Below, piece by piece: positions 13,379 to 48,309 of a DNA stretch of 64,000 nt. The position numbers and the translations under genes were made by a program. Each line of letters opens with the position of its first letter. Position 1 is the stretch's first letter. Source of the DNA: an uncultured virus (IMG/VR IMGVR_UViG_3300032038_000054) (taxonomy: Duplodnaviria; Heunggongvirae; Uroviricota; Caudoviricetes); the IMG/VR virus record IMGVR_UViG_3300032038_000054. One strand, written 5' to 3'. Under the pieces are notes generated by a model, which saw only the letters and a program-made list of their open reading frames with translations, had not been told where the DNA came from and made no database searches.

Positions 13379-13453
13379 CTAATCCTTTAATTGATTGACT
13401 TTCACTAATTATTGACATATCATATATTTAGTGAAATAACAACGAGGTACACT

Positions 13454-14593
13454 ATGGAACAAATGACAATTACTGCTAAAATTCAGATATCAGTCGATAC
13501 AGACAGTAGGGTTTTGCTTGATGAAACCATGTCTGTTTATTCCGATGCCTGCAATTTTGTGTCTGACTATGTGTTCCATACTCACGACTTAAAGCAGTTT
13601 TCGCTTAACAAGATATTGTACTCTACACTCCGAGAAAAGTTTGGACTCAAATCTCAGATGGCTCAGTCTGTATTTAAAACTGTTATCGCAAGATATAAGA
13701 CCATTCTTAAAAATCAGAAAGAGTGGATTCAGCCGTCTTTCAAGAAGCCACAGTATGACCTTGTATGGAACAGGGATTATTCCCTTACACAAAACTGCTT
13801 TTCAGTAAACACTTTGAATGGTCGTGTTAAATTACCTTATTTTGTTGAAGGTATGTCAAAATACTTTGACCATACAATCTATAAGTTTGGTACAGCCAAG
13901 CTTGTAAATAAGCATGGCAAGTATTATTTGCATATCCCCGTAACCTACGATGTCGAAGAAAGTAATGTTTCTGACATCTGTAATGTCGTTGGTATTGACA
14001 GAGGTATAAACTTTGTCATTGCTACTTATGACAGTAAGCACAAGTCTGGATTTGTAAGCGGTAAAGCCATCAAACAGAAACGTGCTCACTATTCCAAACT
14101 TCGTAAAGAACTCCAAATGCGTCACACTCCATCTGCAAAACGTAGGATTAAAGCTATCGGTCAGCGAGAAAACCGTTGGATGCAGGATGTAAACCATTGT
14201 GTGTCAAAGGCACTCGTTGAGAACAACCCGAAGCATACACTTTTTGTCCTTGAAGATTTGTCGGGCGTTCGCAATGCTACAGAGCGTGTCAGAACTAAAG
14301 ACCGCTATGTTTCTGTGTCATGGTCTTTCTATGACCTTGAACAAAAACTCATCTACAAGGCTAAACAGAATCAGTCTGCTGTTATTAAGGTTGACCCTCG
14401 TTATACGAGTCAGTGCTGTCCTGTATGTGGACGCATTGAAAAGTCTAACCGCAACAAGAAGATACATCTGTTTACTTGTAAAAACTGTGGCTATAAATCT
14501 AACGATGACCGTATTGGAGCTATGAATCTGTACCGCATGGGAATCAACTATCTCGAAGACAGTCAAGTACCGAGTACAGTTACGGCAGAGTAA
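13454..14593 (+). CDS. tnpB: RNA-guided endonuclease TnpB (copy 1)
   Basis: RuvC-I VGIDRG, RuvC-II LEDL, YTSQCCPVCG...CKNCG zinc ribbon, RuvC-III NDDRIGA; GAGG RBS before ATG at 13454. Confidence 0.93.
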   Translation: MEQMTITAKIQISVDTDSRVLLDETMSVYSDACNFVSDYVFHTHDLKQFSLNKILYSTLREKFGLKSQMAQSVFKTVIARYKTILKNQKEWIQPSFKKPQYDLVWNRDYSLTQNCFSVNTLNGRVKLPYFVEGMSKYFDHTIYKFGTAKLVNKHGKYYLHIPVTYDVEESNVSDICNVVGIDRGINFVIATYDSKHKSGFVSGKAIKQKRAHYSKLRKELQMRHTPSAKRRIKAIGQRENRWMQDVNHCVSKALVENNPKHTLFVLEDLSGVRNATERVRTKDRYVSVSWSFYDLEQKLIYKAKQNQSAVIKVDPRYTSQCCPVCGRIEKSNRNKKIHLFTCKNCGYKSNDDRIGAMNLYRMGINYLEDSQVPSTVTAE

Positions 14594-21864: not shown

Positions 21865-24800
21865 CTTTTCCTCCTATGTATCTTGCTCTACAAGCTCTCC
21901 TTGAATGCATCTTTTTCTTAGTATATATATCCGAATACTTTCTGAAATAACCTTCTATATTATACAAGAAAACTAAGTCTTTACCGCATTTCTCATCATG
22001 TTTCAACATTGATATTAAATCCTTGATGGGAATTGCCCTATCTATAATATTGTTCTCGTCTACCACATAATCATCATCCATGCTTCTATTCCCCTTTAAC
22101 TAAAATAATAACCCTTTTCCTTTATTTCTTCCCACTCTTTTGCAATAAATAATTCATCAATCATGCTTCTTTTTTCACCGCATCTAATAATTGCGGTAAC
22201 ACGATAAAATTCAGCGCCCTTCTTACCATTACCCATAATTTTTTCTTCGCTTATAATCTTATCCACATAATATTTTAATATACTCATTTATTTCCCCTAC
22301 CATCTTCCGAAAGCCATACGGATTTCATTATAGATAGTGCATCTTCCATAGCCTTTTTATACTGCGGATTATCTGAATTATAGACAGCCAATGAAACTTT
22401 AGACATAGCATCTAATGCTTTATTCTGAAATTCTAAGCTTACTACATTATAACCACGCTCGTATTGCTGTCTATCATACTTTAAAGCTTTGACAAGTTCA
22501 TCCCTATCAACCTTTATATCCAATGATGAAATCATTTTAAAAACATTATCCTCAACCCAAGAATTATAGGTATTGCTCACCTCTTTATGTATTAAGGTTA
22601 TCGGACTTTCGTATTGCTCCGCAGGAATAAGGTAATCGCTATTAAAAACCTTAGAAAAATCAATATTATAGTTACTCATATCTCCCCTCCCAATATTTCG
22701 GCTCTCGATGAGTCGTCAAATTATTTTTAATCGCTTATCAATATTATATTTGATGAATGTGTAAGATATGTTTTTCCATTTTTATCCGTCACTTGAATGA
22801 TGCCATCGCATCCCGACCATGCTGAAATTTCAATCTCGCCATATCCTTCTATGACAGCCTTATTATATGTATTACTGCACGCTAATCGCTCATTACAACC
22901 AGTCAGCAGAAGACCAATTAACACAATGATAATTCCCTTTTTCATGCTATCACCTCTTATTCATATCATCATCAATCCATTTAGTTATAGCCACAGCCAT
23001 TATCAAAATTCCAATGCTTATAATTATTCTTATCATGTGAAACCCTTTATCTTTTCGCAAACAACTCTCTCAGAATAGGACATTTACCACTTTCGATTAT
23101 TCTTCCGCAAGCACCTAACTCGCCACCGCAAACAGTAACTCCATGACAATCTTTCTTCCACTCGCAATTATTAATCGCGTCATCTATTTGCTTTTGCGTT
23201 ATCTCCATTGTCACTCCTCTTTGATTAAAAATCACCATCAAGCTTAAGTCTAATTTCATTAAGCTCTCTTCTAAGCTTTACGATATCTGACTGAATAACA
23301 GTTCGCTTTCCATAAAAGAAAACTGACGTTTCGCTTAGCTCTCTTTTTGCAAGCTCGATAATTCTATCAAGCGATTCTCTGCAATACGTTAGGTCTTTCA
23401 TAATTTCTTTCTTGCTTGCACTCATTTTAATCCTCCTCATCGCATGACTTACCTAATATTTTTGTCATAAACTCTGGCTCTTTTAAAGTCAAATTTCTAT
23501 ACATCTGTTCTGCCTTATCTCCCGTGATTACTTTTACAATATTTATTGAAGGGTTAAAGCCTAAGCCATATCCTTCTCTTCCAACCACCAACACAGGAAC
23601 ATCTTCTTGTGATTTATCATATGTCACTATCAATTTCTCACTCATTTATTGATTCTCCTTTCGTAATATCAAGACTTCCTTACAAAAACAATGTTACCCT
23701 ATAAGGGCAACATTGTCAACACGTTTCTTCCATTATTTCTAAATATTACATGTCGCTTTCTGTTGTTTTGGAAATCCCGATTAAAGAATATAGCTTCTCT
23801 CTTACGAGACCTATTTGTTCATCTATATAGCCCTTTAATCTTACTTCCCTACTTTCATTAAACCATTTAGCTTTAAATTTTGTAAGTGTTTCTCTATAGC
23901 CATCCTCTGATATATCACCGCTTTGCCACCACTCTAAATCATGTAGTACATCACACAAATCTTCTATCAAATCATTCATTTCAGCATCATACATTTGGTT
24001 TCCGCATTCACATCTTAATCTGTTGTATATGTAATTATAACTTCCTCCGCTCATTTTACCCTCCTTAATAAGCTTCATTATCAGATTTTCATTGGCTTAT
24101 TCCTGTCTAGTGTTTTGTACAATTCTCTTCGCTTCTTCTTTTGCTTTCGCAACTCCATCAATAAAGCCTAATCGGTATGCATCCCACTCCGAATCTGAAT
24201 ACTTTAACAGGTCTCCCTGTTTTTTCCATGGAGCGGAAATATTAATATCATGTATTTTTACCCTAACAACATCATTACTCAAAGCTTTCTTTGCAATTTC
24301 AGCTTCTTCTTCAAGTCTTTTCAATTCGATATCATTTTTTGATGCTATATATGTCATGCCTAATACTACCACTCCGACTATCACAACTACTATTACTATT
24401 GTTATTGCCATAAAATACATTTCCTCACCTCCTTATTTACTTAAATCAATTCCAAAAGCATTAGTTTTTACATACACTTTCCCGTTTACATCTTGAAAAA
24501 TAGGCTCAGTGCATCCGTATTCAATAAGCTCATATCCATCCTTGATTATGTTGTCGTGACTATCTGAGATATAAGCTATCAACTCATTGGTATTTGCATC
24601 TACAACGCATCTGTTCATTCTTTACTCGCCTCCTTTATCTGTTTTAATCCCCATATTTTTCAGCAAAAATACTTGCTATATTCCATCCAATGTTGTCTGT
24701 AATCTTTTCTGCCAATTCTTTTGAAGCTAAAGAAGATGCAAGTTTCGGTATATCAATCATACTTTCATTTACTCTTTTATACACCTCAACATTTACCGCC

Positions 24801-25018: not shown

Positions 25019-26506
25019 GTGAACTACCCACCACCTAAAGGAAGTGGGCTTCGTAGAGCCATTCGGCTCTTTTTAAGAAGTTTGATATTTAAGCTTCCAC
25101 CTGATTTATCAGGCAATCCTTATTCTTACGGGCGTGTCCACCTCGCCCCTAGCGTATAGTCCGTCTAAGGACACAACGTTACTTTTACGTAGGATATTAA
25201 GCGCTCCATTTATATCAGCATTAAGACATTTACCATTCTTACATTGATACATTCCTCTGTGAATTCTATTGCCGCTAAATATATATGTTTTTGGATTATC
25301 ATTATTGTAAATTGGAAGTTCATCTTTATCCCAGAATGAGGATTTAGATGTATAGCTTTCTTCCTGTTTTACAAACACAATACTATTTAACTCACATAGA
25401 TATTCTAATTTAAAGCGCAATTGACCGTAAGGGATATTTACAAAATTTTGATTATTTGCTTTTCCCATATCAACATTGCGTTGGAATGTCTCATTATAGC
25501 CAACTACGAGAGTTCCTATATTATTAGATATACAATAGTCTATGATTTTACGAGCAGTCTTGTTCATATAATCATTAACCTTATTGTTTCTATTTCTGGT
25601 ATTAGCTTTTTGTCTGTTAGTTGGTCTATATCCCAAACGCTGTTTGTCTTTAATTGACTGTAACTGAGCATTACGCTTGTTATACCACTGATTGATAGAT
25701 TTAAGTCTCTTTCCATCTATGATGAATGACTTACCTTCACTTGATACAGCAGTTACAAGATTATTTATACCTAAGTCTAAAGCTAGTGCATTGTTTTGAT
25801 TTAGATTTCCTTGAATATTTTCAGCTTCATATATGTACTGGATTTCAAAGAACCTAGCGTTTGCCTTTGGTATTATGCGTATCTCTTTAACTTTTTTATC
25901 AACTAAAATCGGTGGTATTGTAATCTCTACACTTTTATGGGTCTTCTTATAAGTGTTTGAAAATGGAAGTATTAACTTATTTCCATTTAGCCTTACAAAA
26001 CCAATCACAAGAGTAGCATATCCATCTTTCGGAAGATAATTAGGTAATTTACAATCTTTAAAAGCATACTTACCTTTTTTAGCAAGCTTCAGTAAACCAA
26101 AGAATGACTTGAAGCTGCCATCTACTTCTTTAAGTATCTGCTGAGCCATATTTGAGTTGAGTAATTTATAGTTTTCAGATGACTTTAAAAGAGCGTAGTT
26201 CTTCTCATAGTTTAGATACTCGCCTTCATTGAGGTAGTATTGTCTTACATTGTAGATTGCCTGATTAGTTAAGTTCTTTGCTATATGGCAAAGTTCCTTG
26301 ATTGATTTATAGTCTTCTTTTGACAGATGTTTAACCTGTTGTTTTACTGCAAGATACATAAGCTTTCTCCTTTCTATAGATTTAGGATTATCCTATGTAT
26401 ATATTATATCATATTTTACTAAAAAATACCATTTTCAGTAAAATAACAGTCTATGAGGCGGCATTCATCCCACCACTCAAGAGTAGTGTTTTTCTGCCTC
26501 GTTTCT
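25019..26506 (-). mobile_element. Non-autonomous IS200/IS605-family element 2 (tnpB only), inserted in a small gene
   Basis: Left end after TTTAT with an imperfect hairpin; right end CCCACTTCCTTTAGGTGGTGGGTAGTTCAC; removing it restores an ORF from 26526 to 24919. Confidence 0.8.
25109..26359 (-). CDS. tnpB: RNA-guided endonuclease TnpB (copy 2; variant without the Cys zinc ribbon)
   Basis: ALDLGINN, QEESYTSK, NADINGA. Confidence 0.92.
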   Translation of the reverse strand: MYLAVKQQVKHLSKEDYKSIKELCHIAKNLTNQAIYNVRQYYLNEGEYLNYEKNYALLKSSENYKLLNSNMAQQILKEVDGSFKSFFGLLKLAKKGKYAFKDCKLPNYLPKDGYATLVIGFVRLNGNKLILPFSNTYKKTHKSVEITIPPILVDKKVKEIRIIPKANARFFEIQYIYEAENIQGNLNQNNALALDLGINNLVTAVSSEGKSFIIDGKRLKSINQWYNKRNAQLQSIKDKQRLGYRPTNRQKANTRNRNNKVNDYMNKTARKIIDYCISNNIGTLVVGYNETFQRNVDMGKANNQNFVNIPYGQLRFKLEYLCELNSIVFVKQEESYTSKSSFWDKDELPIYNNDNPKTYIFSGNRIHRGMYQCKNGKCLNADINGALNILRKSNVVSLDGLYARGEVDTPVRIRIA

Positions 26507-28714: not shown

Positions 28715-30206
28715 TTTCTCTCCTCACTTTCTGGCTTTAATTCATTGATTTTCTGTTGGATAATCTCTTGTACTTGCCATTTAGAAATGCAATCAGATGA
28801 AGCATAATCACATATAGGTGCATCTAAATCTTCTATGTCATTCCATAGAAATCTAAGCATAGCCACCATATCAGCATTCAAGCGGTTTTCGTAATCTTTT
28901 TTAAAAGAATCATAGGCTTCCGTAAACGCATCTAGCTTAACTCGTTCTAACGCAGATGCCTGTTGTACTACGGTAATCCATGCTTTTGTAATATCCACTC
29001 CGTATAAAACATAGTTTTTTGCATAAGCATAAGCCGTCTCTAATACCATTGTTGATTCTTCTGATAATTTATCTAATAATTGCCGTCTAACATTATCATC
29101 CGTCTTCTTTTTCATCTTCACACACTCCGCATTTCTTTAGTATTTCATCTAATCTTGTTAAGCTGATATTGATAAATCCCTCATGCTCATATTTCATCAT
29201 TTCTTGAATTGCTTTATATACATTGTCTTTTGGGATTGCTTCTACTGTTCCTTTTTCACTTACAAAATACTCGATATTACTTCTAGTGATTTCATCTATC
29301 GCATCATTTCCGAAATAATCGAATAATACGTCAATATCAATCAATCTCCCCATCTTCCATCACCTCTAATATCCTTCTTTCAATGTCGCTCATTTCGCCA
29401 AAGGATAATTTTTTTAATGAATCGGCTATTTCTTCTATCTTCTGATATTTGTGCATGGTATCTTTGGCTGTCTGCAATGCTTCAATCATATCTGAATAGG
29501 CTTTATTAAGTGATGTGCTTGCTGTCCATGTTCCTCTAACTCCTGTTCCGACAACCTCTCCACTAGACACGTTTTCATCTATCAGCTTTTGATATGCGCC
29601 AATAGAAAAATCTAATTTATGTATGCAATCATCAATCGTCATTCCCATCTTCTATCACCTCTTTGATTTTATTCACCAATATCATTGCATTTTCATCATC
29701 ATCCCATGCTTTTACAATCTGTTCTATCTTCTGATGCTTACGCATGATATCTATTGCTATTTTAAATGCTTCGGATATATAAATTGCTCTTGGCTCTCTT
29801 CTTTGATGTATATAGTTATGGTTGTCTATCCGTCTAATAGCTTCGTCAATTGCCATTCCCATCATTATTTCTCACTCAGCTTTCCATATTATCAAAAATG
29901 TCTGCAACTAACTGAATTGCATCTTCTTGTGCCTTATCATCTTGATAAATATATTCACCTCCACATTCTTCTGCCAATGGGTGTTTTTCTACATATCCTG
30001 CTATAAGTGCTTTAATTTCTTCCATATCGTAAATCATTCCTTATCCTCACTTTCTCTCTTTAACTCTCTGCATTGAACTTTATCCCACTCTTGGCAAAAT
30101 GAACTATCATTTGAATTATCAAACTCAAATTTGGCTCCTTCAATAGCTTCTTCTTTGTTATTTGCCATTTTTGTATACTCTTTTATTAACTTGACTTTAT
30201 ATGTTT

Positions 30207-30533
30207 TCATGCGTTCTCGCTTTCTGCCCTATAAGGTTCGGGTAACGGCATCCAAGCGACTACATCCTGCCGAGCGAACCAATTCTTATCGCTATACCAA
30301 CAGGTTTTTGAATATCTTCTTAAGTGGTCGTTCTTCACGCTTACGAGATATAGCCCATCTTTTTTAGGCAATCCCTCGGCAACAGGAGTCCATTTTTGCT
30401 CTTGCTCTAATGCTTTGATGTTTTCCTTAAGCCAATTCACATCATTTTGAGTGAGATATGATACGGCATCATCTCCGTTATCTAGTTCAGATAGGAGGCA
30501 ATTGATTTCATTGATAATCTCTTTTCTTGTCAT
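30207..30533 (-). CDS. DUF551-like domain protein
   Basis: WTPVAEGLP...VVAWMPLPEPY. Confidence 0.75.
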   Translation of the reverse strand: MTRKEIINEINCLLSELDNGDDAVSYLTQNDVNWLKENIKALEQEQKWTPVAEGLPKKDGLYLVSVKNDHLRRYSKTCWYSDKNWFARQDVVAWMPLPEPYRAESENA

Positions 30534-30788
30534 CCCTCATTATCCTTTCCTGCGGCTTTCAGTCTTGATAAAATAGGCTTCCGTATGCACCATATTGTAC
30601 AAGCACTCTGCCAACATTATAGTAATGCTCGGTAGTTACAATAAGTGTTCCGTCCTTTTCAAGTACAGGCTCTTGCTTTAGTGCTTTAATTGCCGCGTTT
30701 AACGTGTCAAGCCACTCTTGCGTGTGTAAACCATCGCGCGCACAATCTTCGTATTCATCCATTAGCATTTCTATCTGTTCTCTTCTTG

Positions 30789-31199
30789 TCATTTCTTATC
30801 TCCACCCTTCATCTTATATTTATCAATAGTCGTTAATACATCGGTTAATACTTCGCAAACTATATGTTCTTTTTCATATCCTTCATCATACATCCACTTT
30901 CCCGATAGCGGGAACATGGCTTTTATTTTTACTATTATCTTGTCAAGAACCTCAATATCATATGGGTTTGACAACTCGTTTAGCCCTAGAAGCCAATTTG
31001 CCGAAACATCAAAATTTTTACAAATTTTCACTATTTCATCAGACCTAAGAGGGCGTTTATTATTAATAATTTTCCAAGCAGTATATTTCGTAACGCACAA
31101 CATATCCGCAAATGACTGTTGTGTTACATTGTATTTATTAAGCAATTGTTTCAATCTGGTATCATTTCTCATTCTCATCACTTTTTCACACCCTCTCAA
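30789..31199 (-). CDS. XRE-family HTH fused to an array module
   Basis: RLKQLL...TQQSFADML...ICKNFDVSANWLLG, then VLDKI...IDKYK. Confidence 0.7.
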   Translation of the reverse strand: MRGCEKVMRMRNDTRLKQLLNKYNVTQQSFADMLCVTKYTAWKIINNKRPLRSDEIVKICKNFDVSANWLLGLNELSNPYDIEVLDKIIVKIKAMFPLSGKWMYDEGYEKEHIVCEVLTDVLTTIDKYKMKGGDKK

Positions 31200-31485
31200 A
31201 CCTCCCTACACATTTTATCGAAAGCCTCATTTACAGTTTTTACAAACTTTTTAGCTATCTGATAAGTGTCCTCACAAAAAAGGAATCCTCTCATGCTTAC
31301 TTCCTTTTTATCATGCACTACTCCAAGTTCCTCGTCATACAAATAATTATTTCCTATTTTTATTTTAAACTCACCCGCACCGCCGTTTTTCAAAACAGTC
31401 AGATAATCAACTAATTCGTTTACTGTCATAGGTTCACACTTTTCTAATACCATATTTCGCTCCTTTCAAAGTCCTTTATACAAAA

Positions 31486-31517
31486 ACAATGTTACCCTAA
31501 AAGGGTAACATTGTCAA
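31486..31517 (-). promoter_or_regulatory. Promoter-operator repeat, copy 2
   Basis: TTGACA-17-TAACAT; perfect arms ACAATGTTACCCT/AGGGTAACATTGT. Confidence 0.78.
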
Positions 31518-31522
31518 TATCA

Positions 31523-31738
31523 TTATTCACTTTTTCCTACAAATTCATCTACGAAAATCAAAGGCGCGGATTTTTCCATTCTATGTTCAGTTTTTACTTT
31601 CGTCTTTTTTGATTTATTTAGTTTTGCCATTTCACACTTTTTTGGACTGACACTCGCGCATGGCATAACATTGAGACCACATACAGGTATACCACACAGC
31701 TTCACCATGTACGGGCATCCACCTACACTCTCCGCCAT
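31523..31738 (-). CDS. Cys-rich hypothetical protein
   Basis: ORF track; GAGG RBS. Confidence 0.55.
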   Translation of the reverse strand: MAESVGGCPYMVKLCGIPVCGLNVMPCASVSPKKCEMAKLNKSKKTKVKTEHRMEKSAPLIFVDEFVGKSE

Positions 31739-32149
31739 TACAATACCTCTCTAATACCATACCACATCCCTACACAAAGCGCCTCTATTTTCCCTTCAAC
31801 ACGTCCAATAAATCTTTAAACGGAACTTTGTAAATCTTTTTCTTACCACATTTATAGCATACTTTTATCATGTAAAAAATATTGTTCTTATCTATGTAAA
31901 CTTTAGTATCTTCATCTCTGAATCGACAACCACCACTCAGAAAACATCTTACTCTGTTCATTTGTGCCTCCTGCAAAGTTCGCTTTAATATGTCTCTACT
32001 CCTTATAGTTGCTCCGCACTCTGACGGCTTCACATACCAAAACTGTGAAAATCTAAGGCGTGTTATATTTCATTTCTATGCGTGAGTATTTATGTAACAC
32101 TCACGCTAATTAGACGCTTGCTGTTTACTCTGTCCACGAGAACAGCTAG

Positions 32150-32250
32150 TAAGTGGGCAAGGATTTGAACCTTACATGATTGAACTCCCACAACCGCAAC
32201 AGTCGGTGTCAATCTTATGTGTAAGCGTCTACCTCATTCCGCCACCACTT
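32150..32250 (-). ncRNA. Non-canonical tRNA-like RNA A
   Basis: AAGTGG/CCACTT acceptor, TGGCGGAATGAGGTAGACGC D-arm, GTAAGG-TTCAAAT-CCTTGC T-arm; no canonical anticodon arm. Confidence 0.7.
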
Positions 32251-32395
32251 TTCTTTTTAATGCCCTATAAGCTCTGTCCGTTCCTTGCAGAACCATTTTA
32301 CAACCTTTGCACATAGCATCGGCGTTACTGTTTATCCCTACTTCTGGGATATCAGCTAATAAATCTTGGTTCTCAAAATAGCACTTGATAAGTGA

Positions 32396-32950
32396 TTATG
32401 GAATATATTCACCATCATAATCTGTTAATACGGGATAACCCTGTTGACATACTTTATGGAATTCATCAAGACCTTTATCTCTTATTATTTCAAGAAAATA
32501 GACAATTAACTTTTCTGTCTCTGGATGAAAATGTCTGCCTTTTCTTACTTTGTTGAAATAATTAAGCGGTTCATCTTGTGTCCATTTTGCATTGCTATAT
32601 ACTTTACCTGCACCAATCCAATCACAGACCATTTCTATAACATATTTTGATGGCATTTTATTTGCAATAATATTGCCGTTATCATCAAAATCTGTCCACC
32701 ATTCCCAATGATGTTTATTTACACCTTTGTGATGCAACCATGCCATAGAATAACCACAATCTTCTTTTTCTGCCTCAATAGGACTTCTGTTTCCTTGAAA
32801 ATATTTTGCAGATGCAAAAAATTCTATAGCACTAAACTTTGATAAATCATGCGTAATACCCTGCCATATTATGCCACAAGATTTGCATTCTTGATATACA
32901 ACCATTTTATGCTTACATATTGTTTTTAAATGTTTCCATTTTGCTCCTAT
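32396..32950 (-). CDS. DUF5662-like (HD-type) protein; probable ATA start at 32950
   Basis: GITHDLSKFS, AWLHHKGVNKHHWEWW, EMVCDWIGAG; frame is open upstream of the annotated Met up to an AGGAGG RBS. Confidence 0.75.
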   Translation of the reverse strand: MGAKWKHLKTICKHKMVVYQECKSCGIIWQGITHDLSKFSAIEFFASAKYFQGNRSPIEAEKEDCGYSMAWLHHKGVNKHHWEWWTDFDDNGNIIANKMPSKYVIEMVCDWIGAGKVYSNAKWTQDEPLNYFNKVRKGRHFHPETEKLIVYFLEIIRDKGLDEFHKVCQQGYPVLTDYDGEYIP

Positions 32951-33150
32951 GATTACCCCTCCTCATTTACTCATACGATTGAGCCTTACGGCTCACTGTC
33001 CGCGCTGTAGCGCCATTTTTGATGCCCTGTAAGCACTGTTTTGCTTCGTCTTTACTGCGCCGTAATCTTGAACTGTTCACCGTAATATTCTATCCTTTTA
33101 AATTTTAGCTTACCGTACCAAGCGCTTCGCATTTGTTGGTATCTTTGTTT

Positions 33151-33306
33151 TTGACACTCCCCATGCCTAAAGGTAGGGGATTCTTGCTTCATCCACTTAC
33201 CGCGCTAACCCGAAAGGTTCAACGTCTTACATTGTGTCCACAAGCGTATATTCGGGTATGTCCTACCCTATTTGCCACTGTCTTAGGCTAGTGACAGCCC
33301 TTTGTT
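33151..33306 (-). ncRNA. Orphan TnpB omega-RNA / IS right end with no tnpB and no left end
   Basis: Aligns to 46976..47130 with 11 substitutions and 1 indel by hand count; ends GGGGAGTGTCAA. Confidence 0.85.
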
Positions 33307-33326
33307 GTCGCGCCCATTTCAGCAAT

Positions 33327-33449
33327 TCTGCGGGTAAGGATTTGAACCTTACATGATATGATTTCCTTCAAAAACAACAGTTTCTTTTATCACAAAGACT
33401 TGTATCATATCTTCTGTCAAAAGCGTCTACCTATTCCAGCCACCGCATA
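33327..33449 (-). ncRNA. Non-canonical tRNA-like RNA B
   Basis: TGCGG/CCGCA acceptor, TGGCTGGAATAGGTAGACGC D-arm, GTAAGG-TTCAAAT-CCTTAC T-arm; long branched insert. Confidence 0.7.
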
Positions 33450-33451
33450 AA

Positions 33452-33646
33452 TTATTTAATTCTCACCAATGTTCTTTTAATATCATTGGCTACATTCTCT
33501 TTATTTGAAGCTACTATTGCTTCAATCACGTCCATAGGCTCACATCTACAGCTATGACAAACTAAATCTATTATTTTCTCTGGTTCTGACATTCCGTCGT
33601 CAAGCTTTTTATGTGTCTCTACAATTTTTCTTTGAATCTCAGTCAT
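33452..33646 (-). CDS. Hypothetical protein (start MTEIQ)
   Basis: GAAAGGA RBS; the longer ORF call starts inside the IscB element end. Confidence 0.6.
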   Translation of the reverse strand: MTEIQRKIVETHKKLDDGMSEPEKIIDLVCHSCRCEPMDVIEAIVASNKENVANDIKRTLVRIK

Positions 33647-33717
33647 AAATAAAATCCTTTCGTCTTCGTAGGCGAAACCCATAAGCAAGCTCATGGAAGA
33701 AAGCCTTGTGGGTATAC

Positions 33718-34956
33718 CTATATAGCAATCCGCTTTTCTGTTAAATATCTGCCCCGTGGTTCAAGCAATCTCATGTTCTTGTAACCTACGGATGCATTTA
33801 AACGTGTTCCATCTAAAAGTCTTAAATCCATACGTCCTGTTATCCGTCTGCCAAAAATAAAACACTCTATACGATTCCACAGAACTTTGTCAAACAATCT
33901 GAAACCTTTAACCAAATATTCAGCTTGATTACGTTTCCTATAGCCGCCCTTCTGAATAGTATTTTTATGTATCTGCCTGTTGTGACAACGTACTTTCTTT
34001 TGGTAAAAAACATATCCTAGTGGCTTCGCTAATGAATTGCCACTAATACACCTCGCATCAATGTAATGTTCTTTTGGCAAGCCATGTTCTATACGCTTAT
34101 TCTTTGTAATATATCCATATGTCATGTGTACATTCGGATATGTTTCTTTAAGTTTGTTATAGAAAGTCCACCGCATAATTCCCATAAAAGCAGAATCTTT
34201 AAAACTAGCGCCACGCTTAATTGACTTAGGTAGTTGTACATTCCCTTTATGGTACTGAATGTGGCAATATTCACAAAGCGTTACTAAATTATTTGGTGCA
34301 TCACCACCTGTCTTTCGGCTTTCAATATGATGGACATTCAGTATATTGTCTTTTGATTTACCTTTACAGCATTGGCAAGTATGGTTATCACGCCATAACA
34401 CATATTCTCTGACATTCCAAAAATCTAACTGTTCGCCTTGCTGATATTCAACTCCTTGTATATTTGGATTTTTAATCTTCTGAATATCAAATTGTGCTGT
34501 TTCCACAGTAATCTTAGTTATTGGAAGTATCTTATGCACATTTGCAATTACTGTAAGGTGAGTATTAATCTTTTCTTTGATGCTTGGTGCAAGCCATCCA
34601 TCACCTCTACGTCTATTGTCAAATCTAGCCTTGCGATATCTAATCTTGCGGTTACGTCTCGCCCTACGATTTTCCCTACGAGTGGATAACAGCTCAACAA
34701 TGTCGTTACGAAGTTTCACATCTGCTTCATAAAGAACTTTATCCTCTGTTGTAGCTGAAACTCCGATGTGTTTACTTCCTGCATCAATTCCAAGACTAAT
34801 AGGTTGCGTATAATTTGTGCCTTTATACAAAAGTTGTATTGTAAACGGACAACGTTTAATGACTTTAGCTTTACCATCTTCAAGAAGATGCCTAACCTTT
34901 CCATACCGATTAGTCGGCATTAGTGGCTGTCCGTCTGCGTTTAACACGTATACCAT
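33718..34956 (-). CDS. iscB: RNA-guided endonuclease IscB
   Basis: PLMP N-terminus, GIDAGS (RuvC-I), RRxRR bridge helix, VETAQFD (RuvC-II), HNH VHHI...NLVTLCEYCH, HYIDA (RuvC-III). Confidence 0.95.
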   Translation of the reverse strand: MVYVLNADGQPLMPTNRYGKVRHLLEDGKAKVIKRCPFTIQLLYKGTNYTQPISLGIDAGSKHIGVSATTEDKVLYEADVKLRNDIVELLSTRRENRRARRNRKIRYRKARFDNRRRGDGWLAPSIKEKINTHLTVIANVHKILPITKITVETAQFDIQKIKNPNIQGVEYQQGEQLDFWNVREYVLWRDNHTCQCCKGKSKDNILNVHHIESRKTGGDAPNNLVTLCEYCHIQYHKGNVQLPKSIKRGASFKDSAFMGIMRWTFYNKLKETYPNVHMTYGYITKNKRIEHGLPKEHYIDARCISGNSLAKPLGYVFYQKKVRCHNRQIHKNTIQKGGYRKRNQAEYLVKGFRLFDKVLWNRIECFIFGRRITGRMDLRLLDGTRLNASVGYKNMRLLEPRGRYLTEKRIAI

Positions 34957-34964
34957 AATCGGTA

Positions 34965-35234
34965 TTCCTTTCCTGTGAACTTAATCACATAATTCAGTTC
35001 CATACTGAACTGTAATGATACCTTCGCCAATGTTAATGAGAGGTTTTATATATCTACAACACTATTCCTATACCACAGAATTGTTTAATCACAGACCTTA
35101 GAACTACAAGCTAGGTATTATACTCGTAGGTAACTATATATTCTCTCTTAACGTAGTTCAGCCAATAGGCTTCACTTAGGCTACTCACTCTGGGTTGTTA
35201 GACAACCCCACGGCTTGCCGTGGGTATTAGTGAG
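34965..35234 (-). ncRNA. IscB omega-RNA (HEARO-like) scaffold
   Basis: About 270 nt non-coding, upstream of iscB, with CTCAC/GTGAG stem, TAGCCTAAG, ACTACGTT and AACATTGGCGAAG motifs. Confidence 0.8.
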
Positions 35235-35448
35235 GCTTGCTCATGCCTAGCGTGTTCAAATACTCCTCAGACCAAAAAGGATAAGGCTCTAAATCACTTT
35301 CATCTTTCCTTAGTCCATAACTTTTTATAAGCTCATCTAAATAATTCGCCACCAAATCACTCAACACTTCTGAAACATCTAGCGAATAGATTTCACACGT
35401 CTCTTCAATTTGTCTTTTTACCGAATCTTCAACTTCTACATTACACAT
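35227..35448 (-). CDS. Hypothetical protein whose 3' end runs into the IscB element
   Basis: ORF track; the stop codon falls inside the omega-RNA scaffold start. Confidence 0.6.
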   Translation of the reverse strand: MCNVEVEDSVKRQIEETCEIYSLDVSEVLSDLVANYLDELIKSYGLRKDESDLEPYPFWSEEYLNTLGMSKPH

Positions 35449-35458
35449 AATGTTCCTT

Positions 35459-35632
35459 TCAGTCGATTTTTCCTTCGTATCTCAAGACCTTTTCCATTAG
35501 CGTCAATAAATAATTTACTGGCTTTGTCGCGCCTTGCTCCCAATTTCTTATTGTCTTTCTAGGTATTCCAAGATACTCAGAAAATTCCTGTCTTGTCATT
35601 TTTGATTCTTCTCTCATTTTTCTAACATCCAT
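35459..35632 (-). CDS. Small XRE-family HTH regulator (57 aa)
   Basis: Read by hand: MDVRKMREESKMTRQEFSEYLGIPRKTIRNWEQGATKP...; below the ORF-track length cut-off. Confidence 0.8.
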   Translation of the reverse strand: MDVRKMREESKMTRQEFSEYLGIPRKTIRNWEQGATKPVNYLLTLMEKVLRYEGKID

Positions 35633-35653
35633 TTACATATCCTCACTTATAAT

Positions 35654-35685
35654 ACAATATTACCCTTATTAGGCACTATTGTCAA
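35654..35685 (-). promoter_or_regulatory. Promoter-operator repeat, copy 3 (degenerate)
   Basis: TTGACA-17-TAATAT; ACAATATTACCCT...AGGCACTATTGT. Confidence 0.65.
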
Positions 35686-35691
35686 TTATAT

Positions 35692-37590
35692 TCACACCAT
35701 TTCTACAAATTTTTTCTGCATCAAATCGTATGCTCTTGAAATTTCTCTTTCTATCACATCGTTTTTATTTATACGCTCATGCGTTATCGCATCATCAAAT
35801 GTAATGATTGCTCTGACTTTAATCTTAACCCCTTCTTTTTCCTTAATCTTTTTCACAGGGTTTCCGCGCCCTAAAATTTCTTTCCATTGTTTTATTATCT
35901 TGTCGTTATTAAACTCATACTCAAACTTGCCTTTCAACTGATTGCTGAATATTTTTTCCACATCGAACTTATCATTTATTTCCCATGGAATTTTATATCC
36001 ATTTTCGCCTTCTTTAAAATTCAATTCGGGCAATACTTCCAAATCAGTTACCAATACAGGTATTCCAAGCTCAAGAGCTTCAACCAAAGAATAACAAAAA
36101 CCTTCGTGGTCTGATAACTGTGCTAAGTAATCAGCACTTTTTATATAAGGCGCAATATCAAGAGTAGGTTTTAAAAATGTTATGTTGGTTGCTCCTTGAA
36201 TCGGAGAATCGCAAAAGCACAACCAAACAAACGGAATATTGCGCTTTCTCAAAAGATTAGAGAGCGCTACCATTCTCTTTTGCCCTTTTTCATTAGTGCC
36301 AGTTCTCGTAGCAGAGACAATAATAATAGCCTTTTTAACATCTTTTGGCGCAGTTAAGTTATGTATAGTTTTATAATCCTTTTTGAAATCTAAATAAGAT
36401 TTTGCAACAGCCTCCGAAACAGGAACAAGGTAGTCATTGTCTTTTGGAATTACAAGAGCCTCATCCCACTTACATGAATGAACCATCTGTACTTTCTGTC
36501 TGTAAAAAACATTCTTCGGAGAATCGTCTGTTATTCTATTTACAATAAGCGTATCGCATTCGATATACGTAGATAAATCGTTTCTCTCTACCCTTGCAAA
36601 CTCCTTTAATCTAGCTTTCTGCTTTTCATCTATAATTTTATACAAGACCGTTATATCATAGCTTGGTGACATTTGCTTGCAAAAATTATAAATAAATGTT
36701 TCTATTCCACCTATTTCAAATGTTTTTTCCGTCCATATCACAATGTCTGTTTTTATCGGCATTACAACTCTTGTGAACAAGTTTGTCGGATAACCTCTTA
36801 ATTCCGTTCCATGTATTTTTCTTGGCGGCATTACTAAGGCATACTCACTTAACTTCGGAATGTTGTTCTGGTTAGTCATAAGTATTATTTCAGCCACTTT
36901 ATTGAGTTCCCTAAATTCTGAAATAAGGAATGTCATGGCTTCGGTTACTATAGGGAAATAGTATATTACTCTTCGAGTTCTCAAAAGTCCTTTCTGAAAT
37001 CTTTTTGTCAAAGAATCGGGTGTATTAGTCCTGTAAAAATACATAAATTCCGATATAAAAGCTTTCTTACCTTTGCTCTCGTCGATTTTCTTGATAAATT
37101 CTGCATCTTCTCCAATTGATTTATTAGGATTAAACCTAACATTCCCTATAAAGCTCTTTTTGTAAACTCTATTCCATACACATTGATTAGTCGCAGGAAA
37201 CTTATCATCAATAGTTTTTATTTCAACTACTGTTTGTCCTCCGTCAGAAAACGTTTTCCACGACATGTAGCAATAATCAAAAGCTGTTTTTTCGATTTCA
37301 TCCAAGATAAGTTTAATATAATTATCAGACACTAAATCATCTGAATCTATAAACGATATATATTCCCCATGAGATTTGCTTATGCCTGTATTTCTAGCCT
37401 CGCTAACCCCTTTATTGCTTTGATAATAAAAATTCACCCATTCATAATTGCTTTTTAATTTAGGACAAGAGCCATCATCAACAACAATCACCTCTACCTT
37501 ATCATTTACTTGAGGAGCTAAACAATCAAGTAATTCGCTTAAATAAGGCTCTGAATTATACGCAGGAATTATCACGGTTAATTTTTTCAT
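35692..37590 (-). CDS. Two-domain glycosyltransferase (GT2 plus GT-B/GT4-like)
   Basis: VIIPAYN, VVDDGS, NKGVSEARN, FIDSDD; then IGGIETF and EGFCYSLVEALELGIPVLVTD. Confidence 0.88.
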   Translation of the reverse strand: MKKLTVIIPAYNSEPYLSELLDCLAPQVNDKVEVIVVDDGSCPKLKSNYEWVNFYYQSNKGVSEARNTGISKSHGEYISFIDSDDLVSDNYIKLILDEIEKTAFDYCYMSWKTFSDGGQTVVEIKTIDDKFPATNQCVWNRVYKKSFIGNVRFNPNKSIGEDAEFIKKIDESKGKKAFISEFMYFYRTNTPDSLTKRFQKGLLRTRRVIYYFPIVTEAMTFLISEFRELNKVAEIILMTNQNNIPKLSEYALVMPPRKIHGTELRGYPTNLFTRVVMPIKTDIVIWTEKTFEIGGIETFIYNFCKQMSPSYDITVLYKIIDEKQKARLKEFARVERNDLSTYIECDTLIVNRITDDSPKNVFYRQKVQMVHSCKWDEALVIPKDNDYLVPVSEAVAKSYLDFKKDYKTIHNLTAPKDVKKAIIIVSATRTGTNEKGQKRMVALSNLLRKRNIPFVWLCFCDSPIQGATNITFLKPTLDIAPYIKSADYLAQLSDHEGFCYSLVEALELGIPVLVTDLEVLPELNFKEGENGYKIPWEINDKFDVEKIFSNQLKGKFEYEFNNDKIIKQWKEILGRGNPVKKIKEKEGVKIKVRAIITFDDAITHERINKNDVIEREISRAYDLMQKKFVEMV

Positions 37591-38398
37591 ACAACTCATC
37601 AAGTTCGTCTCCATATCTTCCGAAAAACCATTGTTCAAATTTATCAAACTCTTTTACACGCTCATAGTTATAATCTATCGCTTTGCTTCTCTTTCCGTAC
37701 TCCCAATGCGGATTAATCAAAATCTTATCTACAATCTTAGGAATGTCGTTTATATTATCAACCCTTACTATTCCTTCTTCATCAAATAATCGCCCAATAT
37801 TTCTCGCTCCGTAATATATCGGCACACACTTATTCGCAAAAGCGTTCCCGATTTTTTCTGTAAACCACCAGTCATCAAGATAATTTTCTATGCATATCGA
37901 AAACTTATATTCCTCGTATATTTGTGCAGTAGTCACATAACTACCGCCATCATAAGTTCCCATACAGTCTACTTTATCTTCCAACTCTTTGCAAAGCGCT
38001 TTTCTTATTATGTGTTGCGCACACATCTCCTTGTCAGAAGAACAAAAAGATATGTTTTTCAGTTTATTCCATCTGCTGTCATTCCAGTTGCCAAGCCCTT
38101 CTTGACCGCCTCCCCACAGAATCAGTCTTGAATTAGGCAATAATGATAACAACTGAGAATCATGGGTAAATACCATTGCAAACTCTTTACCGTTATATTC
38201 CATCCATCTATACAACTCTGGATTTAAAGACCTCGGTTCTATCAAAATAGCTATAGCCTTAGATTTATCTATACCCTTTTCCCTCATCGCAATATAATCC
38301 ACTAGGCAAGTAATATACTTTTCACCTTTAACCATATTGTGATTTGGAAAATGGTCATATGGGCTATACATCTTAAGCCTCATTTTAATACCTCTCAT
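37556..38398 (-). CDS. GT10-like (alpha-1,3/4-fucosyltransferase-type) glycosyltransferase
   Basis: YKFSICIEN...FTEKI...CVPIYYGA motif. Confidence 0.8.
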   Translation of the reverse strand: MRGIKMRLKMYSPYDHFPNHNMVKGEKYITCLVDYIAMREKGIDKSKAIAILIEPRSLNPELYRWMEYNGKEFAMVFTHDSQLLSLLPNSRLILWGGGQEGLGNWNDSRWNKLKNISFCSSDKEMCAQHIIRKALCKELEDKVDCMGTYDGGSYVTTAQIYEEYKFSICIENYLDDWWFTEKIGNAFANKCVPIYYGARNIGRLFDEEGIVRVDNINDIPKIVDKILINPHWEYGKRSKAIDYNYERVKEFDKFEQWFFGRYGDELDELYEKINRDNSCV

Positions 38399-38506
38399 TT
38401 TTGTAAATTTTGCCCATTTAAGACGTTTTTATGTCTTAATGATAATTTCCTTGTAGTTAATATAAAAACTCAAGGAAGGTAGGAAATTTTTATATTTGAG
38501 GGCATA

Positions 38507-38761
38507 TTATTTATTCAGCACATACCTTGCAAATTTACAACAGTGTCCATACTTATCAACCTTCTCAATATCAAACGTTGTAATATCATATCCTTTTTTT
38601 CTTAACTGGAATATTATAGCCGAAAGTCTTGTAGCCCCAAACATGTTAATCGCTTCCATACTTGTAATGCTTCCGTTTGATTTTAAATACTTAAGAACCT
38701 CACTGGTTTTATTTCTTTTAACTGGCGTTACAGCTTCATGTCTTTTTATAAATGCTTTCAT
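38507..38761 (-). CDS. Winged-HTH phage protein
   Basis: VLKYLKSNGSITSMEAINMFGATRLSAIIFQLRKKGYDI. Confidence 0.75.
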   Translation of the reverse strand: MKAFIKRHEAVTPVKRNKTSEVLKYLKSNGSITSMEAINMFGATRLSAIIFQLRKKGYDITTFDIEKVDKYGHCCKFARYVLNK

Positions 38762-39150
38762 TTTGTTACCTCCTTCTTGGCACGCTTCGCATCCCTTAAC
38801 TCTTTCCTTCTTGCATTTATCTCGTCTTTATGCAAGTTGTAATAATCTAACGCTTTCTTTCTACGCTCGATTATATTACTATTATACCTCATTTGATTCT
38901 TTTTATTTATATTTTCTTTGTTTTTCTCATAATACTTGGCGTGCCTTGCTTTATCTTTTTCTTTGTTTTCTTGGCGATACCTCGCAGACTTTTCTTTTAT
39001 CTCCTCTTTGTTTTCTTGATAATATTTAGCGTGTCTTATTTTATCCTTTTTCTTCAAAAACTCTTTGCCCGCGTCATTAATATCATCCAAAGCATATTTA
39101 CAGTTTTTTAATTTGCAATTTAAACAATCATATCCACAATTTAATCTCAC
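38758..39150 (-). CDS. Basic protein with N-terminal Cys cluster and YYQENKE repeats
   Basis: ORF track. Confidence 0.7.
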   Translation of the reverse strand: MRLNCGYDCLNCKLKNCKYALDDINDAGKEFLKKKDKIRHAKYYQENKEEIKEKSARYRQENKEKDKARHAKYYEKNKENINKKNQMRYNSNIIERRKKALDYYNLHKDEINARRKELRDAKRAKKEVTK

Positions 39151-46740: not shown

Positions 46741-46953
46741 TCACAATTTTGTGTTCGCCAAGAAAATTTTTCTTTTTAACGTATCAGATAAATTTAAAAT
46801 CTTAGCAAGATTTTCAAACTCGGATATTTTAACCTCGCTACCTCTAATAATAGCATAAAGACGCTCCCGTGAAATTCCTGCTTTTTTAGCAATGTGGACT
46901 TTTGTTATTCCACTGTCTTTTATAACTTCTAGCAGTAATTTACCATCCGTCAT
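46741..46953 (-). CDS. Cro-like HTH regulator
   Basis: ITKVHIAKKAGISRERLY...SEVKISE; first native gene after the 48281 promoter. Confidence 0.7.
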   Translation of the reverse strand: MTDGKLLLEVIKDSGITKVHIAKKAGISRERLYAIIRGSEVKISEFENLAKILNLSDTLKRKIFLANTKL

Positions 46954-46975
46954 CCTGTTACTCCTTTCTCATGTG

Positions 46976-47130
46976 TTGACACTCCCCATGCCTAAAGACA
47001 GGGGATTCTTGCTTCACCCACTACTGCGCTGACCTAAAAGGTTCAACGTCTTACATTGTGTCCACAAGCGTATATTCGGGTATGTCCTACCCTATTTGTC
47101 ACTATCTTAGGCTAATGACAGCCCCTTGTT
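46976..47130 (-). ncRNA. TnpB omega-RNA scaffold of element 3
   Basis: Overlaps the last tnpB codons; its extent is independently marked by the copy at 33151..33306. Confidence 0.8.
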
Positions 47131-48198
47131 TAAAATATTAATCGCCGCATTGTAGTCACGGTCATGCTTTGTATGGCAGAATGGACATTCCCATTCTCTT
47201 ACAGACAGATTTCTCACAAGCGGATTAGCTTGACCGCAATTATTACAGGTTTGACTACTTGGATAGAATGTGGGTACTTTTATTATTGTGTTGCCATACC
47301 ACGTAGCCTTGTAGTCTAGCATTGTGAAAAACTTGCTCCATGAAACACTTGATATTGCTTTCGCTAATCTATGATTGCGCATCATTCCTTCAATGTTTAA
47401 ATCCTCACAGCAGATTGTTTGGTTTTCACTCACTAGCTTTGTGGATTCTTTTTGCAGGAAATCATTTCTTTGGTTAGTTACCTTTTCATAGATTCTTGCA
47501 ACCTTAATGCGCTGTTTGTTTCTGTTCCTTGAACTTTTTTGTTTCCTTGATAGTCTGCGCTGTTCACGCTTTAATTTCTTTTCAGACTTTTCAAGATACT
47601 TAGGGTTATCAACCTTGTTACCATTACTATCCGCATAAAACTCTTTAAGTCCTACATCTATGCCAATTTCTTTCCCATTGTTCTGCTTAAGTTCGGGTTC
47701 AAAATCTACATTCAGCACCGCAAAGTATTTACCCACAGGTGTTTTCTCAATGGTTACGTTATTGATATGACCTACTTCCATTGATTGTTTTACTTTTACA
47801 TATCCCAACTTTGGAAGTTTAAGATAATTGCCTACGATACGAATATTATTGCCACGATTCAAGGTTCTATATGATTGATGATTGTTGTGCTTACTCTTAA
47901 ACTGCGGAAACTTCGCTCTCTTCTTAAAGAAATTCTGATATGCTCTGTCTAAATCTCTTAATGATTGTTGAAGTGCAACGGAATCAACATCTTTTAGAAA
48001 AGCAAAATCATCAGACTTTTTTAACTTTGTCAGCATAGCAGATGTTTGGATATAGTTAGCTTTTTCACCATTCTTATAGGCTTTATCTCGCATATCTAAT
48101 CCTTTGTTATAGATTAGTCGGCAACAACCTAAAGTCTGCAATATTAAGTTTTCCTGTTCTTTATTAGGATATATTCTAAACTTTACACCTTTATTCAT
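47107..48198 (-). CDS. tnpB: RNA-guided endonuclease TnpB (copy 3)
   Basis: KFRIYPNKEQ HTH, IGIDVG, CEDLN, PSSQTCNNC...CPFC, HDRDYNAAINI. Confidence 0.95.
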   Translation of the reverse strand: MNKGVKFRIYPNKEQENLILQTLGCCRLIYNKGLDMRDKAYKNGEKANYIQTSAMLTKLKKSDDFAFLKDVDSVALQQSLRDLDRAYQNFFKKRAKFPQFKSKHNNHQSYRTLNRGNNIRIVGNYLKLPKLGYVKVKQSMEVGHINNVTIEKTPVGKYFAVLNVDFEPELKQNNGKEIGIDVGLKEFYADSNGNKVDNPKYLEKSEKKLKREQRRLSRKQKSSRNRNKQRIKVARIYEKVTNQRNDFLQKESTKLVSENQTICCEDLNIEGMMRNHRLAKAISSVSWSKFFTMLDYKATWYGNTIIKVPTFYPSSQTCNNCGQANPLVRNLSVREWECPFCHTKHDRDYNAAINILNKGLSLA

Positions 48199-48280
48199 TG
48201 GCTAATCCTTTACTTATTGGCTCTTGTCGTTTATATCCCCATAGCTAAAGCTAGGGGTTTGCGCTCGTCTTGATACAACT

Positions 48281-48309
48281 ATCATATCGCAAAGTGCTTT
48301 AAATGTCAA
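48281..48309 (-). promoter_or_regulatory. Near-consensus sigma-A promoter heading the early/middle block
   Basis: TTGACA-17 nt-TATGAT. Confidence 0.8.

Follow-up and report, generated by a model that had tools for sequence, protein, structure and literature searches.

What is a TnpB guide-RNA scaffold doing in a phage genome at a place where no tnpB gene accompanies it? The question is raised by a 156-nt segment at 33151..33306 on the minus strand, hereafter the solo copy, which lies among tRNA-like genes in a 64,000-nucleotide stretch of gut phage DNA (the window). The initial annotation had put it forward as a trans-acting second guide RNA for the phage's own TnpB, a claim that stands in one respect, a cognate and apparently intact TnpB being encoded 14 kb away, and is weakened in another, the origin of the segment being very likely that of a deletion remnant. 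Taken as a whole, the account that is probably right joins an origin as a deletion remnant with a possible residual activity in trans, and makes selection for a second guide less likely.

The solo copy and its scaffold

The solo copy and the right end of the TnpB element numbered 3 (46976..47130), which both read as minus-strand RNA, share 92.3% identity across 156 alignment columns (E 2e-60 by blastn), with 11 substitutions and 1 indel, or 12 differing positions, and their longest identical run is 62 nt (33213..33274). The homologous stretch sets in 23 nt ahead of where the tnpB stop codon ends (AAC AAR GGG CTG TCA YTA GCC TAA) and stops at exactly ...GTGTCAA, such that the solo copy consists of the final 23 nt of a former tnpB ORF, stop codon included, followed by the right end. 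The 3' flanks beyond GTGTCAA are unrelated, AAACAAAGATACC... at the solo copy and CACATGAGAAAGG... at element 3. The TCAA boundary is thus followed by a locus-specific guide, here 16 nt directly after TCAA at 33135..33150 on the minus strand (AAACAAAGATACCAAC), a length borrowed from ISDra2 as given in parts of PMC10097598. A tblastn search with the protein of element 3 (TnpB3) as query found no tnpB fragment near the solo copy, and neither blastn nor a left-end profile found a left end in 33307..35500, the sole profile match within the window being 48294..48199. An omega RNA encoded in cis overlaps a tnpB gene; the ORF remnant of the solo copy is 23 nt only. Megablast of the region 32000..36000 against the phage GenBank collection gave no match. 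On these points the initial annotation is borne out, having described a duplicate of the right end of element 3 that runs from the last tnpB codons to the terminal TCAA, is followed by different sequence, and has neither a tnpB ORF nor a left-end hairpin beside it.

TnpB3 has 25 relatives in viral contigs, and alignment of their 3' ends gives a scaffold of ~153 nt with GTGTCAA as its last letters, beyond which the sequences are unrelated. Each of the 29 scaffolds in the alignment has either TCAA or CCAA at its end, and 27 of the 29 have GTGTCAA there. RNAalifold predicts 24 nested pairs from the 29 sequences, 10 of which changed on both sides, the same alignment having served both to predict the nested structure and to score its pairing. 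In addition, the loop of hairpin 1 (GACA or GGCA) can be matched with the 3' tail (UGUC or UGCC) to give a 4-bp pseudoknot that is supported by pairing in every one of the 29. With the pseudoknot counted, 11 pairs have two-sided changes and 98.3% of 810 cells are paired, a share that falls to 31-47% after a shift of the partners by 1-3 columns.

The solo copy retains 27 of 28 consensus pairs, pseudoknot included, and its one A-A mismatch is common to tnpB3, L004, and L005. A covariance model (R1) built from 27 tnpB-linked scaffolds, neither window copy included, scores it at 133.9 bits over its full length (model positions 1-154), compared with 146.9 bits for tnpB3 and 112.5-153.1 bits for three linked copies from other records. 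Furthermore, at 156 nt the solo copy is longer than the 116-nt scaffold that is sufficient for ISDra2 TnpB in the relevant part of PMC10097598. Judged by the model and the predicted pairing, the guide-RNA scaffold of the solo copy is structurally intact, and the initial identification of a gene-less TnpB omega-RNA scaffold with a guide of its own holds.

Two of the 12 differences between the solo copy and tnpB3 fall inside consensus pairs, and pairing is kept at both. The changes specific to the solo copy number seven, two of them in paired positions where both give wobble pairs, and seven are too few to test constraint. The exchange first offered as an example of preserved pairing is real; the state of the solo copy (TGTCAC/GTGGCA, as opposed to TGTCAT/GTGACA) is found in the tnpB-linked L005 as well, however, and was therefore inherited and did not evolve in the solo copy. 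A search of Rfam at E up to 1 gave no matches on 31900..33720, so no curated family covers either the scaffold or the tRNA-like units beside it.

Empty sites and the origin of the solo copy

The 22 nt that follow the solo copy recur in three independent contigs, of which two are viral (L171 and L169, the latter the same record as L178) and one is from a metagenome (L179). In these relatives the site is uninterrupted and has the form ...GGGCGCGAC, then 30 nt ending in ATTAT or ATTAA, then AAACAAAGATACC..., which with minor variants reads ...GCTGAAATGGGCGCGAC-GACTCATAAGACCAAAGGCAGAGCCATTAT-AAACAAAGATACC...; the motif before the site is ATTAT followed by AAACAAAG... in L171 and L169 and ATTAA followed by AAACAAAG... 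in L179. On the left, the flank shared with the empty-site relatives (33307..33356, minus strand) comprises the 3' part of a tRNA-like unit and a spacer, and window positions 33356..33306 match L171 1420..1470 at 96% and L179 at 89% (blastn). On the right, the shared flank continues beyond the guide (33077..33134, minus strand; blastn), with window positions 33150..33077 matching L171 1501..1574 at 96% and L169 at 98.5%. The 30 nt at L171 1471..1500 are absent from the window, and the 156-nt fragment stands in their place.

Because the flank of the solo copy is empty-site sequence in the relatives, its right boundary is a normal IS200/IS605 insertion junction beside a TTAT motif, and the solo guide AAACAAAGATACCAAC is the flank of the original insertion site. 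As in a remnant of an IS200/IS605 element, the right end borders on a site that relatives have in uninterrupted form, with a TAM in front of it, and the type of TAM at this ancestral site (ATTAT) agrees with the TTTAT, TGTAT, and TGCAT of the element 3 sites. The left boundary (33306..33307, minus strand), where ...GGGCGCGAC is joined to tnpB at AAC AAA GGG with 1 nt (A) ambiguous, is, as read from the aligned empty sites, a deletion junction reaching into phage DNA.

These boundaries suggest a short history. A full, tnpA-less TnpB element of the IS200/IS605 family, closely related to element 3, would have inserted after a TTAT motif in the spacer of a tRNA-like gene region. A single deletion of ~1.17 kb, a size that presumes an ancestor as long as element 3, would then have taken 30 nt of the left phage flank, TAM included, as well as the left end and all but the last 23 nt of tnpB, and the whole omega-RNA scaffold plus the original guide would have survived it. 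Loss of the left end has made the solo copy unable to transpose. The viral, metagenome, and genome collections yielded no full-length element at this site, so that the full ancestral element must be reconstructed by inference, and the exact 22-mer flank had no match among genomes taken one per species.

The solo copy is present in just one further record, G002, which is 100% identical over window positions 30000..38905 and is practically the same phage; this record therefore adds no evolutionary depth, and no independent lineage in which conservation could be judged. Synteny was also followed through the DUF5662 gene that lies beyond the flank of the solo copy (32905..32396, minus strand). Here 34 viral loci match in the gene only, DNA similarity ending at ~32963, and the scaffold is present in 1 of the 34, the G002 locus, so no empty site can be drawn from them. 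From the junctions and their uninterrupted counterparts, the solo copy is very likely a deletion remnant of an ordinary insertion. The initial annotation had set against its own proposal a simple deletion remnant in random decay; the deletion fits the origin indicated by the empty sites, but the decay is not seen, the scaffold being intact.

The TnpB of element 3 and the case for a second guide

The candidate partner is encoded by the intact element 3 (46976..48272, minus strand; 1,297 nt, the left boundary being ambiguous by 2 nt, 'CA'). In the same orientation the element comprises a left end (48272..48199), the tnpB gene (48198..47107; 363 aa), and an omega scaffold (47130..46976), with the TAM at 48273..48277 and the guide position at 46960..46975 (CACATGAGAAAGGAGT), where the guide overlaps the ribosome-binding region of an HTH gene (46953..46741). 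The limits 48272..46976 and the TAM TGTAT follow from an uninterrupted site in L181, which reads ...GATTGTTTTAT followed by CACATGAGAAAGG, and also TTTAT followed by CACATGAG. The TAM initially proposed for the target of the solo guide, TGTAT, is close: it is that of element 3 in the window, but the corresponding motif is TGCAT in G002, TTTAT at the L181 empty site, and ATTAT at the ancestral site of the solo copy.

TnpB3 is full length, with the Pfam domains HTH_OrfB_IS605, OrfB_IS605, and Cas12f1-like_TNB, and matches the solved ISDra2 TnpB chains at E 8.5e-87. Its D, E, and D align with identical residues in the solved relative and are presumably the catalytic residues. By these features TnpB3 is a cognate and apparently intact partner. 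Furthermore, the tnpB ORF of G002 is letter-identical to that of the window and its scaffold differs at 15 positions, which places the 12-position difference of the solo copy within the natural range. The two further TnpB genes of the window (25109..26359 and 13412..14593) are only ~25% identical to TnpB3 and are unlikely partners of the solo scaffold.

A separate observation concerns the scaffold of element 3 itself. Around tnpB3 the window and G002 differ at 16 positions in 4,087 aligned nt, and 15 of the 16 are packed into 95 nt of the omega scaffold (46998..47092), the remaining one being in the TAM (48275); several of the scaffold differences are compensatory, such as GGG/CCC versus CCG/CGG. 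In this alignment the pattern is that of a recombination or gene-conversion patch confined to the guide-RNA scaffold of tnpB3. The solo copy was considered as its donor and set aside, the number of differences accounted for being ~10-11 of 15, as against 13 for an L005-like donor.

How might the leftover guide be used? All genes around the solo copy are on the minus strand, and the solo copy, which has the same orientation inside a long leftward gene block, is on this account probably transcribed by read-through. Its RNA could then be processed and loaded by TnpB3, and TnpB3 with the solo guide would cut ATTAT+AAACAAAGATACCAAC, in extended form ATTAT+AAACAAAGATACCAACAAAT, which is the uninterrupted allele of related phages (L169 and L171). 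Cutting that allele would follow the ordinary logic of TnpB homing, here between co-infecting phages. The phage's own allele has lost the TAM and the junction, and thus cannot be cut at the solo locus. Natural targets exist as perfect 22-nt matches, with a TTAT-type TAM in two viral contigs and with ATTAA in one metagenome contig. An intact scaffold, a cognate TnpB, and targets in relatives together make use in trans plausible, and residual activity of the solo guide with TnpB3 is, on sequence grounds, possible.

A search for guide and TAM in phages and host had been recommended with the initial proposal. Targets were found in L169 and L171 (ATTAT) and in L179 (ATTAA); matches in the search for host targets stayed at the level of the control. 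In 41 genomes around the nearest one in the collection the 16-nt guide has 8 matches with <=1 mismatch, against 8 for the reversed control, and 0 of 6 inspected matches are preceded by TTAT. Within the window the guide has 1 match with <=3 mismatches, namely itself, against 1.2 expected by chance, in agreement with the initial report of no convincing target there. A promoter scan of the region gave 9 matches against 8.1 expected, none of them informative for the solo copy, and a search of sequencing runs for the region returned 11 runs, none with half of the words. Contigs of 3 RNA-library runs and 1 run of unrecorded kind, compared with 32950..33700, cover only 33449..33646, as the 65-aa ORF of a related phage with 7 differences, and 33329..33356, as a 28-nt piece, and two of the runs gave nothing; contigs cannot show absence, and the comparison carries no weight in either direction for the solo copy.

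Other phages commonly have gene-less copies too. A scan with the last 36 nt of the right end returned 92 viral stretches, and the scaffold hits divide into 56 that are tnpB-linked and 56 that are not, both sets including duplicates and copies at contig ends. A better-preserved set, in which most of the scaffold is kept and the upstream sequence extends for 1,000 nt or more, comprises 19 rows, two of which are the window and G002; the remaining 17 reduce to 13 distinct gene-less copies, each with at least ~118 nt kept. The 5' homology limits of the better-preserved copies run from -64 to +27 relative to the stop codon. Five types are PATE-like (L080/L114/L139, L116, L119, L127, and L089/L090/L101), with a left-end hairpin directly 5' of a right end of 94-138 nt, and eight copies are without a left-end hairpin (L067, L076, L084, L110, L112, L122, L161, and the second copy in L016). 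Gene-less copies of other subfamilies keep ~36-185 nt, several of them (~36-108 nt) being cut into the scaffold, and longer tnpB remnants are present in L086, L125/L132, and L070. Clustering of 5' boundaries, considered as evidence of selection, is weakened by these scaffold-cutting fragments and longer remnants. Among 10 other viral records with gene-less copies, a TnpB relative is present in 6, where most of the TnpBs are only 34-51% identical to TnpB3, and no TnpB3 relative in 4, two of which (G044 and G050) are rated 100% complete. Given that TnpB is absent or distant in these records, the class looks like transposon debris and not like partnered guides, and what sets the window case apart is only that its genome also encodes a cognate partner.

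Some arrangements in these contigs are more elaborate. In L016 (2600..2975) and L119 another scaffold, gene-less and with a flank of its own, lies ~100-260 nt downstream of a tnpB-linked one, and the left-end hairpin before the second L119 copy indicates a PATE that inserted just after a TnpB element. L089, L090, and L091 are three PATE-like mini elements with different flanks on one 37.6-kb viral contig.

The strongest rival account, that of the initial annotation, is that selection maintains the solo copy as a second trans guide for TnpB3, with which the phage could cut, and so convert or exclude, co-infecting relatives that have the uninterrupted allele of the tRNA region. Such a role would be consistent with a scaffold intact down to its pseudoknot, with a cognate and intact TnpB on the same genome, with perfect 22-nt targets in two viral contigs (TTAT-type) and one metagenome contig (ATTAA), with a self-allele made uncuttable by loss of TAM and junction, with 13 distinct gene-less copies of at least ~118 nt in other phage records, and with the precedent for use in trans in part of PMC10691335. 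The origin, however, is an accidental deletion that removed phage flank too, the copy belongs to a single lineage with G002 as its only other carrier, gene-less copies occur in complete phages that have no TnpB3 relative (G044 and G050), truncated and non-functional lengths occur as well, and youth alone could explain the intactness. Retention for this purpose is accordingly judged unlikely, and selection for a second guide the less likely outcome. A broader form of the idea is also doubtful, namely that gene-less omega-RNA modules are guide-only selfish alleles that would borrow a cognate TnpB from elsewhere on their genome, cut the uninterrupted allele of co-infecting relatives, and so drive themselves and their neighbourhood into them, with retention of at least ~118 nt as the mark of selection.

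If that guide-only reading were true, the neighbourhood driven along would be the tRNA-like region with IscB, and the phage would possess a two-guide nuclease for competition between phages. Use of the solo guide by itself would give one TnpB two targets at almost no coding cost, would allow a dead transposon fragment to bias inheritance between competing phages, and would carry the homing role already published for TnpB over to co-infecting phages. For the present the locus is of documentary value, in that an intact element and a remnant are both placed against empty sites, a comparison that yields the type of TAM (TTAT/TGTAT), exact element boundaries, and a natural target. The lesson is that sightings of an 'orphan guide' in phages should first be compared with empty-site alleles.

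Other origins, neighbouring elements, and known systems

Two other origins compete with a deletion remnant. One is that the solo copy is a PATE-like miniature, consisting of a left and a right end without a gene and still movable by TnpA. PATE-type copies of the same scaffold family do occur in other viral contigs, yet at the solo copy there is no left end near 33307..35500 (blastn and left-end profile), the left junction falls within the phage flank, 30 nt 5' of where the element inserted, and no tnpA was seen in the window, which makes this origin very improbable.

The other concerns IscB. Upstream of the solo copy on the minus strand are an IscB gene (34956..33718; 412 aa, RRXRR+HNH) and a HEARO RNA, the omega RNA of IscB (35234..35012; Rfam RF02033, 97.1 bits), and the IscB element (33650..35234) is apparently intact, ~350 nt from the solo copy. 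Between IscB and the solo copy are a small minus-strand ORF (33694..33452, listed as 80 aa, ~65 aa from a later ATG at ~33644) and, directly before the solo scaffold, a tRNA-like unit (~33447..33318, minus strand). That the solo copy is the outer end of a composite element including IscB, or a by-product of IscB insertion, might be suggested by IscB and its HEARO RNA lying so close on the same strand and by L161, where an IscB end directly abuts a gene-less TnpB-type scaffold beginning at the equivalent codon, but is hardly credible when the IscB element has an end hairpin of its own no more than ~75 nt past the iscB stop, a feature of 10 related loci too, when the 65-aa phage ORF and the tRNA-like unit separate the two elements, when the 50 nt upstream of the solo copy are phage flank common to L171 and L179, and when these two contigs are without similarity to the IscB region of the window in the 2-4 kb compared per locus. 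A retro-copy of a processed omega RNA was rejected, as the solo copy carries the flank of its own insertion site and not the guide of its parent.

The neighbourhood has further features that deserve description in their own right. The initial annotation had overlooked the intact IscB gene with its HEARO RNA and the tRNA-like units beside the site, as well as the empty-site alleles of relatives and the exact limits of element 3. In total the phage carries three TnpB genes, one IscB, and one orphan TnpB scaffold. In L161 (3733..3921) the IscB end hairpin abuts a gene-less, L015-like TnpB-type scaffold of a different subtype, which starts at the equivalent N-E/K-G codons of tnpB; the IscB of L161 is 66% identical to that of the window, and the contig is a second case of an IscB element beside an orphan TnpB scaffold. 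The tRNA-like units are repeated, at 33318..33447 and 32148..32247 (both minus strand) and at L171 1369..1449, and have a type-II-like D-arm GGTAGACGC, a canonical T-arm GGTTCAAATCC, an acceptor stem of 5-7 bp, and no normal anticodon arm. ARAGORN called no tRNA in the window region, with or without introns. In L171 the unit is 81 nt long and folds into a cloverleaf in which a loop of 4 nt takes the position of the anticodon loop, and true tRNAs lie near the site in relatives, tRNA-Asn in L171 and tRNA-Pro in L179; the L171 spacer folds no better than shuffled sequences (z = +0.85). In L169 the matches to window positions 33150..33084 and 32248..32153 are directly adjacent, so that the intervening 835 nt of the window (32249..33083), where the DUF5662 gene and a leader of ~130 nt with a higher GC content are located, look like another insertion into a tRNA-like unit. 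Elsewhere, a 67-nt unit is present in two copies (23681..23747 and 31479..31545; 81% identical), each containing a long, perfectly paired hairpin (ACAATGTTACCC-loop-GGGTAACATTGT) with CAA after it. The unit could be a terminator or the end of another small mobile element.

The known systems that bear on the solo copy include ISDra2, whose TnpB and omega RNA are reportedly the subject of Karvelis 2021. For ISDra2, sections of Nakagawa 2023 (PMC10097598) describe a loop-to-tail pseudoknot and give a 116-nt scaffold with a 16-nt guide as sufficient. As in those sections, the scaffold discussed here shares sequence with the 3' end of tnpB, reaches as far as the right-end boundary, where the guide begins, and has the pseudoknot. 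It differs from ISDra2 in that the TAM is TTAT/TGTAT-like and not TTGAT, the scaffold is without an Rfam family, and the solo copy is gene-less.

Stand-alone omega RNAs that work in trans with compatible effectors are mentioned in a passage of a PNAS paper of 2023 (PMC10691335), which cites Altae-Tran 2021. Like these OMEGA RNAs, the solo copy has its own guide, no effector or transposase beside it, and a compatible effector locus in the same genome. They are 'evidently mobilized' according to that passage, whereas the solo copy is immobile, is without a left end and the 30 nt of flank, exists as one such copy in the window and in G002, and resides in a phage. PATEs are described, in the part of the preprint of Meers et al. 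2023 (PMC10055086) that introduces them, as gene-less IS200/IS605 miniatures that 'often encode omega RNAs' and need TnpB in trans. Like PATEs so described, the solo copy is gene-less and keeps the right end and the omega RNA of a TnpB element; unlike PATEs, which have both ends and can be mobilised by TnpA, it has no left end. Already from these portions of the two sources (PMC10691335 and PMC10055086), the idea of a nuclease with two guides is not new, as stand-alone trans omega RNAs are in print.

The homing logic of TnpB is likewise published, in passages of PMC10055086 and of a review (PMC13565253), and the latter describes 'transposon non-restorative homing' between co-infecting phages, citing the T4 Seg endonucleases. 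If active, TnpB3 with the solo guide would resemble phage homing as sketched in that excerpt of the review, in that it would cut the insert-less allele and repair would copy the allele that bears the insert. Unlike homing of the Seg type, specificity would by analogy be provided by a putative leftover guide RNA and not by the protein.
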